This document shows positions 3,008 through 62,347 of a DNA stretch of 64,000 nt, in pieces; position 1 is the first letter of the stretch; each line of letters starts with the position of its first letter. This DNA comes from Lawsonibacter faecis (lineage in GTDB: Bacteria > Bacillota > Clostridia > Oscillospirales > Oscillospiraceae): NCBI RefSeq assembly GCF_014287675.1, contig NZ_JACOPQ010000002.1:168649-232648 (forward strand), in the 5' to 3' direction. A model generated the notes under the pieces. The model searched no databases, had not been told where the DNA came from, and was given only the letters and a program-made list of their open reading frames with translations. A program made the translations under genes and the position numbers.

Positions 3008-6000
3008 CTATTCCCCGGGCTGCGCCGCCAGATGGCGGGCGAGAATCTGGGCAATCTGCGCGCGGGTGGCCGCGCCGCCCGGCATCAGGCAGAGCCTGCC
3101 GTCCGCACCCGCTCCGCCGCTGATAAGGCCCAGGCCCACCGCCCAGCACATTGCGTCGGCGGCATAGCCGGAGACCTCCCCCGCGTCCGTGAACGGCGCC
3201 AGCACGCCGCTCTCCCCGGGCTGCTCCGCGCCGGTATAGCGGTAGAGGATGAGCGCGATCTGCTCCCGGGTGATCGCGCCCTCCGGCCGGAAGCTGCCTC
3301 TGCCGTCGCCGGCGACCACGCCGTTCTCCGCCGCCCAGGCCACCGCGTCGGCGTACCAGAGGCCGGCCTCCACGTCGGCAAAGGGCTCCGCCCCGCCCTT
3401 CGGCGCGGGGCTGCCCGCCATGCGGTGCAGAATGGTCACCAGCTGGGCGCGGCTCAGCGTGCCGTCCGCGTCAAAGCGGCCCGCGCCGACGCCCTCCATG
3501 TATCCGCGCTCCAGCATCATGTCCACCGCGTCGTGGTACCAGGCGTTCCGCCCGACGTCGGTAAAGGCATCGCTCGGGCAGACCGCCGCCTCCAGCGCCG
3601 TCCTGGCCGCCTCCAGGGCGGCGTTGACCTTCGACTTGGCCGCCGCGGTCCGGACGGCCCTCTCGCCGTCGGAGAGGGCCTGCTCCAGGCGGGCCTTCCG
3701 GCAGGCGCAGGCGCCGGCCGGGTCCATGGACTCATAGATCTCCCGCAGCTCCCGCAGGGCCTTTTTCCGGGCGGTGGTCACGGCCGTGTCCCCCCAGACG
3801 GCGATCTCCCGCTCCAGGGCGCTCACCGCCGCATCCAGCGCGTCTGCCGCTGCGTCCAGCGTCTGCTGGTCCGCCTGCCCCTTCAAAAGCCGCTCCGCCG
3901 CGTCCAGCGCGGCCTGATAAACCTCCAGAGAGGCCTCGGTCATGCCGTCAAGCTCCGCCTTTTTCGCGTTCTCGACCGCTTTCTCCAGCTTTGTCCTGTC
4001 GGGCACGGGGGCGTCCGTATCCACCACGATGCTCCCCGCCGCCTCCGCCAGGACAGCCCCGTCCCGGCTCAGGAGCCGCGCGGTGACCCCGTGGGTCCCC
4101 CGGGGCAGGTAGTGGACCGTGTAGGACCACGCGCCGTCCCTGCTCAGCGCGGCGGTGTCCTCGTACCCCGCGAAGCTCAGCGCCACGCGGTCGCCGCTCC
4201 GGGCGGTCCCTGAGAGCGCAAAGGGGAAGGCGGTCACGGAGGAGGTAATCGACACATTGTCGTACTCCGCCCGCTGTCCGCTGGTGTACATGCCACAGGG
4301 CCCGGTCGTCAGTGCCGGGGACTTGCCGTCATCCTCCACATCCAGGATTTTGTCTCCGTCGATATACAGGACAAAGTGTTCGCCCTCAATCACCGCTTTA
4401 AAATGATAGGTCTGTCCAGCCGCCATTGTAAAGCTGCTGTCCGTGACATTCTGCTTAATTTCATTGTCCGCCCGTTTCAAGAAGCGGATGCCGGTCCCGG
4501 GCGTATAGACAAACAGGTAATTGTTGTTGCTGTCCTGATAGCGGAAGGTGAGTCCGAAGGTCTTCTTGTCAATCAGCTCCGTGGGCGTCACGTCCACCTC
4601 AATGGTATAGTCGTCGCCGATACCGGCCGCCGTCACAATGGTACCCCGCGCCCCGCCGTCGGTATTCAGATAGGTCAGCGTGCCGCCGGACACCGCATAG
4701 CCGCCCGTATGGTCGGTCCACCCGCTGAGATCGCCTCCGAAGTCCTCGGTTACCTCGGCCGCCGGGCTCAGGATTTCAACGGCGCTGGCGGCGACCTCCA
4801 CCGGGACCGCGTTGGAGACGACTGTGACGATGACGCCGCTGCGGTCCTCCAGCGTCACCTCCGCGGTGATCTCCGCCGTGCCCGCGGCCCTGGCGTCAAT
4901 GACGCCAGCGCCGTCCACGGCGGCCACGGCCTCGTCCGAGGAGCGGTAGCGCACGGCGGCCCCGTCCAGCTCCGCGAAGCCGCCGTCGTCCAGCCGGGCG
5001 CTCAGGGCGGTCCCGGCCCGCTCGCCAATCCAAAGCTCGGTTTTCTCCGCCTTGAGCGCGGCGGAGACCACGGCGCCCGTGCCCTCGCCGCCCCTCAGCT
5101 CGTAGCTGTGCCCCGCCTCAAAGGGGAACTTGATGGAGCCGTTGACCTCGTTGTACTCGAACTCCACGGTCTCCTCGGCGGTGACGTCGTACACCTCCAG
5201 CGTGGATACGGACCAGCCGTCGTTGCGGTTTGTAACGGTGGATTTGGTCGCGCCGTCCACGAAGGTGTACTCGTAGACCGAGCCCTTCCCCGCCACGGGG
5301 AACACCTCGGCGAAGTAGCTCCCCTTGTGCTCCATATCCTCGCCCACCAGGACGCCCTTGCCGCCGATGAAGGCGGGCATCTGGTCAATGGGCGCCTCGC
5401 GGTCCTTCAGGGTGACGGGGCCCTCGAACACCTCGCCGGTGTCGTACTGAATCCACCTGCCCTCGGGCAGGTAGACGTCCCGGCTGTGGGCGGTCAGGTG
5501 GTCGGTGCCGAAGAGGGGCGCGGCCAGCACGGACTCGCCCAGCATCCACTGGAACATCCGCTTTTCGCTGTTAATCATATCGTAGACCGCGTCGTCCTCA
5601 GGATAGGCGATGTAGAGGGGCGTCATGGAGAGGGGGTAGCCGGTCTCATAGCTCTTGAGGGCGGCGTCGTAGATGTAGGGCGCATAGGTGCTGTGCCAGT
5701 TGATGGCCTTGAAGGCGGCGTCCTTCTTCTCCTGGTCGTCCATCTTCAGCACGTTGACGCCCACGGACTGGCTGGGGCACAGGGCCGCCATATAGGCGTT
5801 GCGGACGATGTAGTTCTGATTGGCGGGATTGTGGACGTCCGCGCCGGTGCCGCCGATGATGTCCGGGTAGACGTTGGACTGGCCGCTGGCCGCGTAGGCG
5901 AGGGAGTTGATGACCATGCGGTCGGGGGAGTTGTTGAAGCTGTTGTTATTGGCTCCGTAGTTTGCGTCGTTGATGCGCAGGACGTCGCCGGGCAGGCAGT

Positions 6001-20511: not shown

Positions 20512-20529
20512 TTGATAACGAACGCAAAT

Positions 20530-20572
20530 AAACCCCCAGAGCCGCGAAGGCTCTGGGGGTTTATTGTTTTTT
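20530..20572 (+). terminator. Rho-independent terminator of rpmB
   Basis: aaacccccagagcc-gcga-aggctctgggggttt followed by attgtttttt. Confidence 0.85.
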
Positions 20573-20691
20573 CACCGCGCCTTCATCCCCCAATGAGTTT
20601 CAGGGGCAGATTCACCGAATACCGGAGAGGCTTTCAGGCTACAATATTCCTTTATAAAGCAGCTTTTACAGCGCAAAAAGGAGACCGACTT

Positions 20692-21267
20692 ATGAAACAC
20701 CAGGTTTGGCTAATCCGGGCCCTCGCTTTGGGCGCCGTCTTTTTCCTTGCCGTTTTGCTGGCGAAGCCCATCGGCGTATCCACCCAGTTTTCCGTGCTCT
20801 CCGGCATTCTCCACAGCGCCGTGGACGAGACGGTTATCACGGAAAACCCCGAGCGCGGGACCGGGTATGAGAGCACAAACGCCTATTATGACAGGGGCGG
20901 CGGCAAGCTGGCGCAAGCCATCGCGAACCCTTGGAATTACGAGTTTGTATTTGTGTTGGCAATTCCGGTCGGCGCCTATGCCGCGTATGCGGCGAACGAT
21001 AAGAAGCGCCGCAGTCAGATGAGCGACGCCGGGCAGCTTCCGGGAGCACCACGCCAGAGCTTCTTGCGCCGGTACCTGCCGGCCTTTCTGGGCGGCTTCA
21101 TTATCCTGTACGGGGCAAGGATGGCGGACGGCTGCACCAGCGGCCACATGATGAGCGGGATGATGCAGGGAAGCGTCAGCGGTTATTTCTTCGCCGCCGC
21201 GGCTTTTGCCACGGCGATCCCCTCGGCGCTCATCGCCCGCCGGACGGCAATCAGGGGAGGGAAATAG
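20692..21267 (+). CDS. YeeE/YedE family protein (sulfur-compound transporter component), half-size, first of a pair
   Basis: Multi-TM protein with the conserved Cys motif (ADGCTSGH); RBS aaaggag. A homologous gene follows 1 nt after the stop. Confidence 0.7.
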   Translation: MKHQVWLIRALALGAVFFLAVLLAKPIGVSTQFSVLSGILHSAVDETVITENPERGTGYESTNAYYDRGGGKLAQAIANPWNYEFVFVLAIPVGAYAAYAANDKKRRSQMSDAGQLPGAPRQSFLRRYLPAFLGGFIILYGARMADGCTSGHMMSGMMQGSVSGYFFAAAAFATAIPSALIARRTAIRGGK

Positions 21268-21268
21268 A

Positions 21269-21832
21269 ATGGATATCGTTCTTGCGATTATTTCCGGACT
21301 TCTCTTTGGATATGCACTCTACCTGGTCGGCGCGACCTCCCCCAAAAAGATTGTCTCAATGCTGAGGCTGGAGGATTTGACGCTGATGAAGACCATCGTT
21401 TTGGCCATTGGGTTTGCCAGCATTCTGCTGTCCCTCTTCAGTATGCCGGGACTCTTGAATATCGGGCACCTGAGCGTAAAAACGATGAACCTCGGCGTAA
21501 TAACCGGAGGGCTGCTGTTCGGAATCGGATTTGGCACGGTCGGAACTTGTCCCGGCACCTGCGTGGCGGCCACCTCCAGCGGCGGCGCCCGAAAAGCCGT
21601 CAGCGCCGTGCTGGGCGGGCTTTTGGGCGCCTGGGCGTTTTCCATGACCTACGGGTGGTGGAGCAGCGTCGGACTGTTCTCCGTAATGGATTGGGGAAAG
21701 CTGACCCTCTTCCATATTTCAGATAAATTCCCGTCCGTCTTTTCTCTCGGTTACGCCGGACTGCTGATTGTCGGCATCCTGTTTGTCATTTCAGCGCTGA
21801 TTCTGCCGGGCGGACGCGGAGATCCCTCGTGA
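21269..21832 (+). CDS. YeeE/YedE family protein, second half-size paralog
   Basis: GFGTVGTCPGTCVA motif; RBS ggggaggg; translationally coupled to the preceding gene. Confidence 0.7.
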   Translation: MDIVLAIISGLLFGYALYLVGATSPKKIVSMLRLEDLTLMKTIVLAIGFASILLSLFSMPGLLNIGHLSVKTMNLGVITGGLLFGIGFGTVGTCPGTCVAATSSGGARKAVSAVLGGLLGAWAFSMTYGWWSSVGLFSVMDWGKLTLFHISDKFPSVFSLGYAGLLIVGILFVISALILPGGRGDPS

Positions 21833-22043
21833 TAGCCGCAGGGCCGGGATGATAAATCCCGGCCCTGCGGCATACTTGGGAGGTTATCAGCGGTGTGGGC
21901 GGCCTGCCCGAAGCGTCAGAGGCTGAGGCCGCAAAGCAAAAAGCGGCGGCCCAATCCGGGGGCATCCGGGGCGGCAGACAAATCCTGTTTCGCTCCCCCT
22001 CGAATCGGCATATCATGTGTTATACCGATTAGGAGGTGCCAAT

Positions 22044-22505
22044 ATGATCATGCAGGCCATCGTCATCGAGGTTCAGTTGGGGCGTCTGCTCGTGCTGGAT
22101 CTGGATACACGGCAACAGGTCATTGTAAATACATCAGAGTTTCGCCGTTTTCGTACCGGCGACCTCGTGAATATCTGGTATAACGGTGTTATGACAAAAA
22201 GCATTCCCCCGCAGATTACCGCTCTGGGGATTATTGCGGTGCAGGGCGAGATGCCCCCTCTGTTTCCCCCGGGCGTCGCGCCCTGTCCGCCGAACGTGTG
22301 TCCGCCGGTGGTCAGGCCGCCTATCATCGTCCCGCCCATTTTCCCGCCGTTCTTCCCGCCCATCGTCCGCCCGCCGGTAGGTCCCCGTCCACCGGTGGGT
22401 CCCCGTCCCCCGGCGGGCCCACGTCCACCGGTCGGCCCACGTCCCCCGGCGGGCCCACGTCCACCGGTCGGCCCACGTCCCCCGGCGGGCCCACGCCCCA
22501 GATAG
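22044..22505 (+). CDS. Small protein of unknown function (paralog 1 of 3): conserved roughly 65-aa N-domain plus a proline-rich (GPRPPV/A)n tail
   Basis: RBS aggagg 7 nt before ATG. N-domain MIMQAIVIEVQLGRLLVLDLDTRQQVIVNTSEFRRFRTGDLVNIWYNGVMTKSIPPQITA is shared with the ORFs at 22757 and 57714. The tail is PVVRPPIIVPPIFPPFFPPIVRPP(VGPRPPAGPRPP)3. Confidence 0.65.
   Translation: MIMQAIVIEVQLGRLLVLDLDTRQQVIVNTSEFRRFRTGDLVNIWYNGVMTKSIPPQITALGIIAVQGEMPPLFPPGVAPCPPNVCPPVVRPPIIVPPIFPPFFPPIVRPPVGPRPPVGPRPPAGPRPPVGPRPPAGPRPPVGPRPPAGPRPR
22378..22497 (+). repeat. Coding tandem repeat, 18-bp unit (xGPRPP), about 6.5 copies
   Basis: ggtccccgtccaccggtg / ggtccccgtcccccggcg ... direct repeats. Confidence 0.8.
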
Positions 22506-22756
22506 TCCGGCCATGCCGCCCCCGACCCGGGGAGGCTTTTTATCCTTTGCCGCAAAAACAGCGCGCAGCGTCCATGTTTATCCCTCCCGCTCCCGGCCGG
22601 ATATCATAATTCCCGACGGACAAACTCCCCGGGAGGTGCGTCGCGCCCCGGCGGATTGCCGGGCAGCTTTTTTTCCACACCGGGCGGTATTTTGACACCT
22701 CCATCATGCTTTCGACATAGTATGCCATGTATGAATGATGGATGGAGGTGTCTTTT

Positions 22757-22966
22757 ATGAATACGACAATGTGTGCAACCGTCTGCAGGGTTCGCAGCGG
22801 TTCGCTGCTCGTCTGCGACCACTGCACAAACCAATTTGTAGTCGTCCATACAAACCGCGCCCGCTGTTTCTGCCCCGGCAGCCACGTCTGTATACACTAC
22901 AACGGCGTGATGGCCCAGAGTATGCCGCCTCAAATCAACGCCGACTGCATCGAGTGCTGCCGCTGA
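22757..22966 (+). CDS. Small cysteine-rich protein (paralog 2 of 3), 69 aa with 9 Cys
   Basis: RBS ggatggaggtg. LLVCDHCTNQFVVVHTNRARCFCPGSHVCIHYNGVMAQSMPPQINADCIECCR aligns with the paralog-1 N-domain (YNGVM..S.PPQI). Confidence 0.6.
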   Translation: MNTTMCATVCRVRSGSLLVCDHCTNQFVVVHTNRARCFCPGSHVCIHYNGVMAQSMPPQINADCIECCR

Positions 22967-23100
22967 CGCTTTCCGCCTGCCCGCCCGGGCAGGCGTTACA
23001 TCTCCCGCCCCTTTCCTCCTCCCCCTCTTCTTGCGCCGGACGCCGCCCCCTCACGGCCCCTTCCCCCGCCGCATAGGATGGGCCGAAGGAGGCGAATCCC

Positions 23101-23574
23101 ATGTCCGATCATCCCGGCCGTATTCCCCGCGTGCTGCTGGAGGGCCAGCCCGCGGCCCGCGCCCTCGTCAAGGGGGACGGCTCCCACCCCGAGCTGCGGG
23201 GCGAGGTCCTCTTCTACCCCTATCAGGAGGGCAGCCTGCTGCTGGTCCGGGCGGCGGGCTTCCCCGCCGACGGCTTCTACGGCTTCCATATCCACGAGCT
23301 GGGGGACTGCTGCACCGGCGGCGACATCCCCTTCTACTGCGCCGGCGGGCACTATAACCCCCAGGGCCGGGAGCACCCGGACCACGCCGGGGACCTCCCG
23401 GTCCTCCTCGCCAGCGGCGGGCGGGCCTATACCATCCTCTACACCGGCCGCTTCCGCCCCTGGGAGGTGCTGGACCGCTCGGTGGTCTTCCACGACCACC
23501 CGGACGACTACCGCTCCCAGCCCGCCGGAGACAGCGGCGGACGCATCGCCTGCGGCCCCATCGAGGCGGTCTGA
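23101..23574 (+). CDS. Cu/Zn superoxide dismutase family protein (SodC-like), with no signal peptide
   Basis: GFHIHELGDC, HPDHAGDLP and GDSGGRIACG are the Cu/Zn-SOD metal-ligand motifs; RBS gaaggagg. Confidence 0.75.
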   Translation: MSDHPGRIPRVLLEGQPAARALVKGDGSHPELRGEVLFYPYQEGSLLLVRAAGFPADGFYGFHIHELGDCCTGGDIPFYCAGGHYNPQGREHPDHAGDLPVLLASGGRAYTILYTGRFRPWEVLDRSVVFHDHPDDYRSQPAGDSGGRIACGPIEAV

Positions 23575-23591: not shown

Positions 23592-23642
23592 AAAAAACGG
23601 GCCGGCCTCCAAAGTCAGGAGGCCGGCCCGTCCGCTTTTTAT
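23592..23642. terminator. Bidirectional terminator between the SodC-like and DMT genes
   Basis: aaaaaacgggccggcctcc-aaagtcagg-aggccggcccgtccgcttttt. Confidence 0.8.
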
Positions 23643-58946: not shown

Positions 58947-61565
58947 CTATCCATCTGATTGGACGCTTTCGGCGATCTCGTCATTGCCGACGACTACAAT
59001 GTCGTCGCTGTCAAACTCACATTCCGCCAGCCCGGGGTTGATTCCCTTGTCCACCCGGTTGTATTTATTGTCCAAAGCGGTCAGGCATTCGTTTTTCCAG
59101 CTGATGCGGCCGCAGTAATCCGAAAACTTTTTAACAATGCTCGGCCCCAGCCTGTCGCTGTAGACGTCTGGCATCCGCAAAAGGAGCTGCGCCATATTCA
59201 GCAGCGCAGCATCCGATATTCCCTCACCGCTGGCCGAATGGTATTTTATTATCATATCCACGTACGTATGAACGGAATATGCAAAATAGCGGTAGGACGC
59301 CTTTTCAATCAGCTCCTCAATCTGCTTTTTTCCTATGTCAAAATAATACTGCGCATGCTGCGGCTCATTGTAAACGCCCCATACCCCCCAGGTCATATAA
59401 TTTTTGGCCTGCGCATGCTTTACATGGTAAGAGGTATTATTGCGAATCGCCGCCGCCTCGGAAAACGCATTGTTCGCCTCTTCAAAATGTTCCATGTCCC
59501 GGTGCAGGATACCCCGCTGCACCCAATAATAGCTTAGATGCTTACACACCTTCTCAATCTGCAAAAACAGGTTGAGCATCATGGAATCGTCGAGCTGCAA
59601 TTGTTTGCGCAGGCTTTTAATCTTAAGCAGCTTTTGGAATATTTCGTTTTGAACCGTCTCCTCCTGCTCGCTGAGGTTCCGGGCGAGGAAGCGCACGGCA
59701 AAGTTGATCCAGGACAAAAGCTCGTCCCGGTCCAGCTGCGTTTGCACCGACGCCCACAGAAGCCGGGAGCACCGTATGGAAATCCGGTCGTCCTGCAGGC
59801 GGATTAGGTCGGCGTAGTCCAGCGCGAATGTGTGCATGTCCACCTCCAGCCCGCAGCCGGAGAGAATATTGGAAAAAAGCGCTGCGGAAATCTCTGATAT
59901 GTCCAGAGCGCCAAACGTGCTGAGGATGAGAAAGGCCGTCTTGTTTTGGGACGCCTGCATGCGCTCAATCATGTCGGAAAAATAGCTGACAAACTGGCGC
60001 CCCTCCTGCGCCGTATAAAGCACGTCAATCAGGTCGTTCAGCTTCCGGATATAGTCGATGCACTCCTTCCGCGTGTTCCCGTAAAGCCGCAGTTTGTTCA
60101 GGTGATTTGTCTCCTCCAGCTTGTCGTAGATATTGGCCGCCTGGCGCCCGTCTTTTGTCTTTTCGGAAATATAGACCTCTTCCAGGCTCTCGTAGGAATC
60201 CAATAAATATTTCTTTGAATTGTGGTCCTGCAGACTGCCCGTACAGATAAAGATCAGGCTGCTGACGTTAGGCGGGCATTTATTGAGGATATCCTTTACA
60301 CGATTGTAGTAGTACGACATCCTCTCCGCCAGAATCGCCACCTTTGCCCCCTCGGGGAGGACCTCCAGATATTCGATAATCCGCTCCTGGTATGCGGTCG
60401 CGTTCATGGAATAGGGGAGGTTGAAGACGGAAAACTCATAGTCAAGCCGCATCAAATCCACGCCAAGCCGAATGGCCGCGCATGTTTTCCCCACATACGC
60501 CTCGCCATAAATCGCCACCAGATGATGCTTCCCTTTGGACGCGAGGGCCTTGGCCCTCCCGTCCACCTGCGGCCTTATGATATCAATATTCTTGATGAAG
60601 TCGTACGGCCGCGGCGGCGCCCCCATGTATAATTCGCTCATGTATTGATTGAGCTTGTTCTCATCCGCCGGGACCTGCTCGTCATAGAAAACCATTCCAT
60701 AATCGCGCATTTTCCGCCGCGCCTCGCCCACCGCTGCAATGCGGTCTTTGATCGTGGTCAAGAATTTCTGCGCCGTCCAGGGGATAAAGTGCATGTTCCG
60801 CTTTTCCTCAATTTTGCGCACAAGCTTCCGATTGTTGATCTTGGGCGAGACAAAGAAATAATGGGGCGGCTGGACAATTTCAACCATGGAATTGAGCTGC
60901 TGGATGATAAGCTGCAGGTCCTCCTCCTGAAATTCCGTCCCCAGAAAGACGACGTCATTGGTCAGGGAGAGATATCCGAACGTGTTCAGCGCCCAGCTGG
61001 GGATCGCTTCATAGTTTCTGTATTCGGCGGAGTCAAAGACGAAGCCCAAATCCGGTCTGTTTACAGAGCCGTGCAGCTTGTACAGCTCCAGCGAAGTCCC
61101 GTTGTGCAGCGTGGAGCATTGCTTGACATGGACAAGAGGGCGCTGCTTCGCCGGCACGTTTGAATAAATGGCCTCGACCAGATCGTCAATATTCAGTGTA
61201 AAAATATGCCGCCACGGGTAGTCCAGCAGGAACATATGAAAATCGCCGCTTAAGCAGCGGCAGCCCGAAAAGCGCTTTTGCAGGAAGCGGTCCCTCTGCT
61301 CCACTAGGTGTTCCATCTCAATGTTGTCGCAGGTTTTCTTCAAATCGGAGCGTTCGGCCCAGTAATCCTCCAAATCCTCCTTCTTAACCGTCTTGCTTTT
61401 GGCCAAGACTTCGTCAAACAGTTCTCCGGCCAACTCGCTGCCGGCCGGCAGCGGTTTGCCGTCCTGGCTCTGGATACCCTTGGAAAAGCCGGCGCCCAAA
61501 ACAAGGATTGGCGTGCGGATCGACATTCTATCAATCAAAAGCTGTTCATCGCCGACAAGATACAT
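58947..61565 (-). CDS. SIR2_2 (sirtuin-like, DHS-like NAD-binding) domain + P-loop NTPase + C-terminal helical-repeat protein; Avs5-like (SIR2-STAND) antiphage defence candidate
   Basis: SIR2_2 blocks ILVLGAGFSKG...PLP, IFTLNIDDLVE and LYKLHGS...FDSAEYRNY. Walker A GEAYVGKT. Long alpha-helical C-terminal region. Start at MYLVGDEQ after ggagga; alternatives are 61580 and 61670. The region has lower GC than its flanks. Confidence 0.7.
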   Translation of the reverse strand: MYLVGDEQLLIDRMSIRTPILVLGAGFSKGIQSQDGKPLPAGSELAGELFDEVLAKSKTVKKEDLEDYWAERSDLKKTCDNIEMEHLVEQRDRFLQKRFSGCRCLSGDFHMFLLDYPWRHIFTLNIDDLVEAIYSNVPAKQRPLVHVKQCSTLHNGTSLELYKLHGSVNRPDLGFVFDSAEYRNYEAIPSWALNTFGYLSLTNDVVFLGTEFQEEDLQLIIQQLNSMVEIVQPPHYFFVSPKINNRKLVRKIEEKRNMHFIPWTAQKFLTTIKDRIAAVGEARRKMRDYGMVFYDEQVPADENKLNQYMSELYMGAPPRPYDFIKNIDIIRPQVDGRAKALASKGKHHLVAIYGEAYVGKTCAAIRLGVDLMRLDYEFSVFNLPYSMNATAYQERIIEYLEVLPEGAKVAILAERMSYYYNRVKDILNKCPPNVSSLIFICTGSLQDHNSKKYLLDSYESLEEVYISEKTKDGRQAANIYDKLEETNHLNKLRLYGNTRKECIDYIRKLNDLIDVLYTAQEGRQFVSYFSDMIERMQASQNKTAFLILSTFGALDISEISAALFSNILSGCGLEVDMHTFALDYADLIRLQDDRISIRCSRLLWASVQTQLDRDELLSWINFAVRFLARNLSEQEETVQNEIFQKLLKIKSLRKQLQLDDSMMLNLFLQIEKVCKHLSYYWVQRGILHRDMEHFEEANNAFSEAAAIRNNTSYHVKHAQAKNYMTWGVWGVYNEPQHAQYYFDIGKKQIEELIEKASYRYFAYSVHTYVDMIIKYHSASGEGISDAALLNMAQLLLRMPDVYSDRLGPSIVKKFSDYCGRISWKNECLTALDNKYNRVDKGINPGLAECEFDSDDIVVVGNDEIAESVQSDG

Positions 61566-61859
61566 CAGAATTTCCTCCATATGTATATTTGAATACACGA
61601 ATGTGTCAAATATACATATTATACGACAGGGCAAATCATGTTGCAATCGAAATTTGGCGATTTTTCTCAAAAGGCGGAAATCAATTCACTGGTTATTTGT
61701 GCGTTATTCCGGCAGTACAAGGAAAGCTCTGCTCCCAAAAACAGAAAGCCCTTGCAATCACTAGCTTTTCTAGCAATTGCAAGGGCTCCAAGAGTGTAAC
61801 ACACAAACAAAATAGATGCCACGCAGTCTTGCCCAACCGTTTGAATAACTAAAAAATAA

Positions 61860-62347
61860 AGGGAGACGGTTTAACAATATTTTCAAGCTTAGAGAATACT
61901 GCCTCAATATATGGGAACAGTTCCCTGTTGTCAAATTGTAGTCGTTCCTCTACTGCATCTGCCTGGCAAACTAGCTTTGCACATCCTTAGCATTGCTTGG
62001 GTAGTCTGCTTCACCAAGCTTAATTTTATAATGACAACTTCGCTTTAACTCCTCCATCTCCGAATACTGGAAGCATCCGTAGTTAATGTTGCATGGGTAT
62101 TCCTTTTCAAACTGGACGTCCATATAAGTGGTCAAGCCAACCATAGGATGTACTTCGCACTGGCCAACAGTTCATCCACCGCCGCCCTGATCCATCTGAG
62201 GTTACCGGTTGGAGAGGGGATTCCCTTCTCGCAAAGCATATCCACTGCCTTGCCCAAGCTGGCTCCAACGAGGTAATAAGCAAAGATACTGCGGACGGTT
62301 TCCCCCTTTTCGTCACCCACCAAAATGTATCCATAGGGTATCCTCAT
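61860..62347 (-). pseudogene. Remnant of a large serine recombinase (recombinase-domain fragment)
   Basis: ORF 62132..62347 (-) VRSIFAYYLVGASLGKAVDMLCEKGIPSPTGNLRWIRAAVDELLASAKYI matches the Recombinase domain of large serine recombinases (IFxLYxxGxSxxxIAxxLNxxGIPxPxGxxWxxxxVxxIL). No intact resolvase catalytic domain. Low GC. Confidence 0.45.

Follow-up and report, generated by a model that had tools for sequence, protein, structure and literature searches.

We analyzed a 64,000-nucleotide stretch of the Lawsonibacter faecis genome (contig NZ_JACOPQ010000002.1, positions 168,649 to 232,648 of the forward strand), hereafter called the window, in which two adjacent small open reading frames (ORFs), ORF1 and ORF2, are followed by a gene for a Cu/Zn superoxide dismutase (SOD). 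An earlier note on this DNA had described ORF1 and ORF2 as paralogs that share a domain of roughly 65 amino acids (aa) and that each have a good ribosome-binding site (RBS). Both points were borne out, the first by an identity of 51% over 61 aa (E 3e-16) and the second by the AGGAGG and GGAGG motifs given below. A third paralog lies outside the region that the note had covered, with a two-component system on one side and a TspO gene on the other. The genes and their parts are as follows, by window position (nt, nucleotides).

22044-22505, plus strand: ORF1, 153 aa, with its ATG 7 nt after AGGAGG.
ORF1 residues 1-65: OB-fold domain of the DUF3221 type, assigned by family match and AlphaFold prediction.
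22325-22495, plus strand: tandem DNA repeats within ORF1, 12 bp x 4.1 copies (22325-22372) and 18 bp x 6.8 copies (22374-22495).
22757-22966, plus strand: ORF2, 69 aa, preceded by GGAGG at 8 nt; consists of the domain only, contains 10 Cys, and ends in CCR.
23101-23574, plus strand: Cu/Zn SOD gene, 157 aa, leaderless; Pfam Sod_Cu (PF00080) at 87.4 bits against a cutoff of 28.9.
57714 to 57430, minus strand: coding sequence of the third paralog, 94 aa, with a short Pro tail containing GCRGC.

A word-indexed search found homologs of both adjacent ORFs elsewhere (32 protein clusters for ORF1 and 12 for ORF2). Because such clusters and confirmed genome loci were found, we regard ORF1 and ORF2 as real genes. 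A Gly-rich ORF on the reverse strand (22073-22555) was rejected as the mirror image of the Pro-rich tail of ORF1, the conserved domain sitting in the plus frame. In another strain of the same species, an intact copy of ORF1 is present without a gene call (1926-2405 of locus L095, GCA_009718705.1; L numbers denote the genome loci compared).

The note had not been able to name the family, which we assign to Pfam DUF3221, with the fold of YobA. The third paralog scores 28.3 bits against DUF3221 (PF11518), above the gathering cutoff of 26.4 bits, and NCBI names it "DUF3221 domain-containing protein [Lawsonibacter faecis]"; ORF2 is a "hypothetical protein" there. ORF1 (21.3 bits, or 24.6 bits for the domain alone) and ORF2 (16.0 bits) both score below the cutoff. 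Across the family, 24 of 32 aligned members match DUF3221 at an E value below 0.01, and multicopy relatives reach 40 to 63 bits. The score and label of the third paralog, together with these 24 members, indicate that the window proteins belong to a divergent branch within DUF3221, a known domain with no assigned function, and are not a new fold or superfamily. The NCBIfam models fit none of the three paralogs, and a literature search for DUF3221 and Bacillus subtilis yobA found no function, with DUF3221 mentioned in passing only.

The AlphaFold prediction had a pLDDT (predicted local distance difference test) score of 97.4, with strand 1 of the barrel beginning at residue 2, and the predicted fold agreed with the solved structure of the DUF3221 family, that of B. 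subtilis YobA (PDB 4QY7). This link was drawn by fold comparison because a PDB sequence search with the family profile gave insignificant matches only (E 0.056 or worse). The family alignment has invariant columns (A, V, I, G, P, P, and A) and an invariant loop, NG-x-MT-x-S-IPPQ. The window proteins have the same OB-fold barrel as YobA, an exported protein; they differ in starting at strand 1, without a signal peptide, and in bearing Pro-rich repeat tails or many Cys residues, as well as a sigma-K-type promoter motif (see below).

After residue 65, ORF1 runs into a tail of 88 aa, 39 of them Pro (45%), which carries a CPPNVC motif (C-x4-C) and GPRPPV/A units and ends in a basic, Arg-rich C terminus. 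The Pro-rich tail, put at 90 aa in the note, measured 87 to 88 aa, and the note's claim that the GPRPPV/A units are the translated 18-bp tandem repeat was confirmed; Tandem Repeats Finder reads that repeat alternatively as 36 bp x 3.1 copies with a 95% match (22374-22495). Across strains of the same species, ORF1 is 159 aa (L095), 147 aa (L096), or 153 aa (L097) long, and the variants differ by whole GPRPPx units, that is, by units of the 18-bp repeat, indicating that the repeat is translated and evolves in frame. For ORF2, the proposal that a compact domain with 9 Cys replaces the tail did not stand: all 69 aa are the shared domain itself, with Cys substituted in to a total of 10.

A profile search of 1.84 billion representatives (E ≤ 0.001) returned 737 clusters, many with two to five tandem copies of the domain and some with signal peptides. 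Scanning one genome per species yielded 228 confirmed loci, and the taxonomy was taken from the best 80 of these 228. All 80 were from Clostridia and nearly all from Oscillospirales, and one was from a "Christensenella sp."; the carriers among them include Oscillibacter, Lawsonibacter, Pseudoflavonifractor, Butyricicoccus, Ruminococcus, and Anaeromassilibacillus, as well as Intestinibacillus, Zongyangia, Angelakisella, Evtepia, and C. viride. The typical member is about 70 aa long and consists of the domain alone, and 65 of 76 short members have a Cys within their last 6 residues. In a Cys-rich subgroup (8 to 14 Cys in about 70 aa), Cys is conserved at ORF2 positions 20, 36/37, 45, 64, and 68, and His is frequent. 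The Pro-rich subgroup has a domain without Cys, and it is chiefly the Oscillibacter/Lawsonibacter/Pseudoflavonifractor group that has Pro-rich tails. As in the window, a Pro-rich gene stands in tandem before a Cys-rich one in L009/L010; in Lawsonibacter hominis (L020), the order is reversed. Relatives with two to five tandem copies include P0045-P0048, P0032, P0054, and P0094; some of these lack a leader, carry Pro-rich linkers, and close with a degenerate copy that has Cys at its end, and others have signal peptides.

The strongest result concerns the promoters. We collected the sequences upstream of every family gene in 97 loci and the window and reduced them to 80 nonredundant ones for comparison. 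The element CATAnnnT lies 15 to 60 nt before the start codon in 71 of the 80 (89%), against 4.6% of random windows taken from this DNA and 8.7% of other ORFs that have an RBS and a length of 150 aa or more. When these 71 sequences were anchored on CATA, a C was found 18 nt upstream in 57, often as AC, and a G after the T in 49; the 17-nt spacer between AC and CATA was essentially unconserved. The family consensus is AC-17-CATAnnnTG. According to published work on Bacillus and Clostridioides, sigma-K promoters carry AC at -35 and sigma-E promoters ATA, and a CATA-type -10 is common to both (PMC3789822). Because the family consensus agrees with the AC rule for sigma-K, its motif is, as far as sequence can tell, of the sigma-K type, by a rule that comes from Bacillus and Clostridioides and is applied here to Oscillospirales, an order without an experimental promoter consensus. 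These results strengthen the idea, put forward in the note, of promoters for a mother-cell sigma factor. An Rfam scan of window positions 20 to 24 kb returned nothing at E ≤ 1, and the conserved upstream block fits no described RNA family.

We then built a weight matrix without the window's own sequences and scored both strands of the 64 kb. The matrix ranked the three window paralogs first to third (scores of 26.2, 23.2, and 21.4), the next score being 16.4. The promoter-like elements, with their matrix scores, are the following.

21990-22017, plus strand: ORF1 element, TC at 21990-21991, 17-nt spacer, CATATCATG at 22009-22017; score 26.2.
22697-22724, plus strand: ORF2 element, AC at 22697-22698, 17-nt spacer, CATAGTATG at 22716-22724; score 21.4.
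23053-23080, plus strand: SOD element, AC at 23053-23054, 17-nt spacer, CATAGGATG at 23072-23080; score 9.5.
57768-57741, minus strand: third-paralog element, AC at 57768-57767, 17-nt spacer, CATATCCTG at 57749-57741; score 23.2.

The CATAnnnTG elements that the note had seen upstream of ORF1 (22009) and ORF2 (22716) are therefore real, and that of the SOD gene (23072) adds a third to its list. ORF2, the SOD gene, and the third paralog fit the consensus exactly. A generic sigma-K pattern, AC-N16/17-CATAnnnT[AG], has five matches in the window, where 1.55 +/- 1.2 are expected, and three of the five sit 20 to 32 nt before ORF2, the SOD gene, and the third paralog. The other two (AC-N17-CATA) lie near 61597-61931 with no ORF behind them; a gene for a 907-aa SIR2_2-domain protein (58947-61670, minus strand) has an unusually low third-position GC content (0.69 versus about 0.9).

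Across 1.58 Mb, 74 of 121 matrix matches precede family genes. One match (score 15.2) precedes a sigK gene in L091 (286 bits in NCBIfam, where the SigK cutoff is 252); the gene is on the minus strand, at a distance of about 2 kb from the family gene. This placement of the motif is consistent with the auto-regulation of sigK described in Clostridioides difficile and B. subtilis (PMC3789822). In L. hominis (L020), a gene starting at about 1573 and preceded by CATAGGATG (score 16.9) encodes a leaderless Amidase_3+SH3 protein of 246 aa, which by its architecture may be a mother-cell lytic amidase. A conserved 83-aa protein (MDQKEMIERLKRNPAAVQALL...), encoded at about 2934 in L081 and L068 and 1 kb from a family gene, has motif scores of 21.1 and 17.4 and no Pfam or NCBIfam match; it is a further candidate for the same regulon. 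A matrix match at a GH18+LysM gene (L077) was discarded as a control, since the Pfam match starts at profile position 207 and the motif is thus probably inside the gene. Among the scanned ORFs of the window, there was no sporulation gene.

The SOD gene was examined in the same way. In an alignment to 7B4O, the protein has a full set of Cu and Zn ligands as well as the catalytic Arg and the Cys of the disulfide, the aligned residues being H-x-H, GGH-x-NP, two more His, an Asp, the VFHDH His, and R-x-x-C-G. The note's description of the protein as leaderless was upheld, with all metal ligands kept and a promoter of the same type as those of the paralogs. Bacterial SodC proteins without a signal peptide are unusual. 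The window SOD belongs to the same family as bacterial SodC and B. subtilis YojM, which is among its PDB matches; YojM is a lipoprotein that lacks the Cu ligands, whereas the window SOD has no leader and lacks none of its Cu and Zn ligands, and it scores far below the cutoff of all NCBIfam SodC equivalog models.

We compared the neighbors of the family genes over the loci of about 82 species. A leaderless Cu/Zn SOD gene lies directly 3' of a family gene in four of them, namely, the window, two Oscillibacter species (L039 and L040), and Intestinibacillus massiliensis (L060), and all four SOD genes have CATAnnnT(A/G) close to their start. The note had placed a SOD beside small Pro- or Cys-rich proteins as a recurring pattern; the adjacency is real in the window, but it is not general. 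A SOD as an obligatory partner was accordingly rejected: it is absent at L001-L014 and, among the genome loci, occurs only at L039, L040, and L060. In L060, genes for a membrane-anchored CopM, a DUF3221 mini-protein, and a leaderless Cu/Zn SOD follow one another on one strand (3252-4768), the SOD gene being preceded by AC-16-CATATGCTA. The SODs of L039 (4640-5089) and L040 (4281-4712) end in SCCR or SCCC, a C-terminal Cys cluster like that of the Cys-rich paralogs.

CopM/DUF305 genes (NCBIfam scores of 103 to 125 bits against a cutoff of 90) adjoin a family gene in L004/L017, L009, and L060. In three Ruminococcus genomes (L086, L091, and L093, at about 4001-4750), CopM/DUF305 is fused to the domain itself, giving leaderless OB-CopM proteins of 249 to 252 aa with 11 to 14 Cys. 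A YkwD-family gene, which exceeds the TIGR02909 cutoff and in one case includes a SafA/ExsA LysM domain, adjoins ORF1 homologs, among others in Lawsonibacter celer and Pseudoflavonifractor phocaeensis. The neighboring YkwD and CopM products are exported or membrane anchored and their genes lack the CATA motif, indicating that they are not co-regulated with the family; the YkwD/SafA-like spore genes, which have signal peptides, were rejected on this ground as co-regulated partners and give weak context only. In the window, a YeeE/YedE-type sulfur-transport gene pair lies just 5' of ORF1 (20512-21832, plus strand), with a third-position GC content of 0.67 to 0.69, and the composition of the 20.2- to 22.9-kb stretch deviates from its surroundings.

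The spacer between ORF1 and ORF2 (22506-22756, 250 bp) holds two terminator-like hairpins, and a strong terminator follows the SOD gene.

22520-22532, plus strand: weaker terminator-like hairpin in the ORF1-ORF2 gap.
22647-22673, plus strand: terminator-like hairpin followed by a T run in the same gap.
23597-23631: strong terminator after the SOD gene.

Given these hairpins, ORF1, ORF2, and the SOD gene look like separate transcription units, each with its own RBS.

Taken together, the sigma-K-type promoters on the paralogs and the SOD gene suggest that these are probably spore-surface proteins. We infer that ORF1, ORF2, and the third paralog are late mother-cell proteins, probably of the spore coat, and give this reading a probability of roughly 55%. 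RNA polymerase carrying sigma-K would transcribe the three paralogs and the adjacent leaderless SOD gene only during endospore formation, and the leaderless products would be made in the mother-cell cytoplasm and deposited on the developing spore as components of the coat or an outer layer. The DUF3221 barrel, with its NG-x-MT-x-S-IPPQ loop, would act as an assembly or interaction module. The basic, repeat-expanding Pro-rich tail of ORF1, with its C-x4-C motif, could then serve in cross-linking or spacing, as could the dense Cys of ORF2 and its C-terminal Cys, through disulfides or bound metal, with the SOD supplying redox chemistry at the same site. Traits of coat-like proteins are present in the pair: there is no export signal, the ORF1 tail is 45% Pro with polymorphic repeats, and ORF2 has 10 Cys in 69 aa.

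The proposed system resembles spore-surface genes of other Firmicutes. The sigma-K coat and exosporium genes of C. difficile (cotA, cotE, the catalase genes cotCB and cotD, sodA, and those for CdeC and CdeM) have the same AC -35 and CATA-type -10, and they likewise encode leaderless products, among them redox enzymes and Cys-rich proteins (CdeC and CdeM). The window proteins have no sequence homology to them, and their spore location is an expectation from promoters where that of the C. difficile proteins is demonstrated; furthermore, the C. difficile coat SOD is of the Mn/Fe type and the window SOD of the Cu/Zn type. In B. subtilis, the coat protein CotG is cross-linked in a SodA-dependent manner, and small coat proteins rich in Cys, Tyr, or Pro occur. 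The idea is the same, that of a SOD acting near repeat-rich or Cys-rich small coat proteins, but the protein families differ, the B. subtilis genes are unclustered, and SOD adjacency here is limited to the four species named above.

Several observations weigh against a spore-surface role. ORF1 has TC and not AC at -35, and the ORF2 element overlaps a good sigma-70-like promoter (TTGACA-18-CATAGT). The OB-CopM fusions have TATAAT-like upstream elements and look sigma-A driven, not sigma-K-like, and the YkwD and CopM neighbors stand apart from the family in export and regulation. The signal peptides among the distant relatives with two to five copies mean that the domain itself is not spore specific. 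Finally, on the question raised in the note of whether the family is restricted to spore formers, the best 80 of 228 loci are all clostridial and one carrier, Anaeromassilibacillus senegalensis, is a described spore former, but many carrier species are formally described as non-spore-forming.

An unlikely alternative, itself compatible with spore expression, is that the Cys-rich DUF3221 protein (and maybe every member of the family) binds Cu or Zn as a chaperone, sink, or store for a cytoplasmic SOD, together with CopM-type metallochaperones. The SOD genes directly 3' of family genes, the adjacent and fused CopM genes, and the conserved Cys and frequent His of the Cys-rich subgroup all speak for it, and the OB fold is common to the window domain and the CusF-like domains of Cu(I) chaperones. 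Unlike CusF-type and CopM/DUF305 chaperones, however, the family shares no conserved Met, His, or Cys metal site across its members: conserved Cys occur in the Cys-rich subgroup only, the Pro-rich subgroup has none in its domain, no His is family-wide, and the invariant residues are hydrophobic, Gly, or Pro. Moreover, the adjacent CopM copies are membrane anchored, extracytoplasmic, and not co-regulated, and SOD or CopM linkage is found in few of the species compared.

Another sigma factor or a regulator could also recognize the motif, in which case these would be ordinary cytoplasmic proteins made under some stress or vegetative condition. The lack of an experimental consensus for Oscillospirales, the sigma-70-like promoter at ORF2, and the many carriers described as nonsporulating leave room for this, as does the element's usual ending in TG (49 of 71), where the B. 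subtilis consensus ends in TA. We nevertheless consider it quite unlikely: two blocks at a fixed 17-nt spacing with an unconserved spacer are typical of a sigma factor, and the motif agrees with the sigma-K rule of Bacillus and Clostridioides and also precedes a sigK gene.

Late mother-cell expression would also suit proteins without a structural role, namely, small regulators of the kind of CsfB, a Cys-rich, Zn-binding anti-sigma protein, or OB-fold proteins that bind nucleic acid and have a basic tail. The promoters speak for this as much as for coat proteins, the C terminus of ORF1 is Arg rich, and there is a precedent in B. subtilis CsfB, which is a small protein made in the mother cell (PMC4383634). 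Against such a role, which we judge decidedly unlikely, there are several paralogs per genome (three within 64 kb), and strain-variable repeat tails and tandem multidomain versions with Pro linkers typify structural surface proteins, not regulators. It is highly improbable that the ORF2-type peptides, small and very Cys rich (8 to 14 Cys in about 70 aa) as they are, are precursors of ribosomally made modified peptides (RiPPs) or bacteriocins, since the conserved OB barrel takes up the entire sequence, with no leader/core organization, the loci examined have no adjacent maturase or exporter, and NCBIfam gave no match.

Returning to the spore-coat reading, we also considered a more ambitious version, which we hold to be doubtful: that the Oscillospirales spore surface is partly built from lineage-specific, expanding DUF3221 mini-proteins, the Cys-rich members of which would form a copper/redox module with a coat-located SOD and CopM-type domains. 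If true, this would provide the first function for DUF3221 and, for a major group of anaerobes of the gut whose spores drive host-to-host transmission, the first coat components.

The DUF3221/YobA domain family, sigma-K-type coat-like genes, and SOD in spore coats are already known. What appears to be new is the leaderless branch in Oscillospirales, its variants with Pro repeats or many Cys, the striking conservation of the sporulation-type promoter, and the sporadic linkage to Cu/Zn SOD and CopM. Anaerobes of the Oscillospirales, among them Lawsonibacter, Flavonifractor-like organisms, Oscillibacter, Ruminococcus, and Butyricicoccus, are abundant in the gut. To our knowledge, the composition of their spore coat is uncharacterized, and coat proteins known from Bacillus and C. 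difficile are poorly conserved beyond these two groups. The promoter signature, present across about 70 species, is a candidate marker of the sigma-K regulon for Oscillospirales, and the motif could indicate a retained capacity for sporulation in species described as nonsporulating. The signature also gives a first functional lead for DUF3221 and defines a small, concrete gene set, the three paralogs and the leaderless Cu/Zn SOD. This DUF3221 branch is thus not a new kind of system; it is a testable lead for the spore biology of gut anaerobes.

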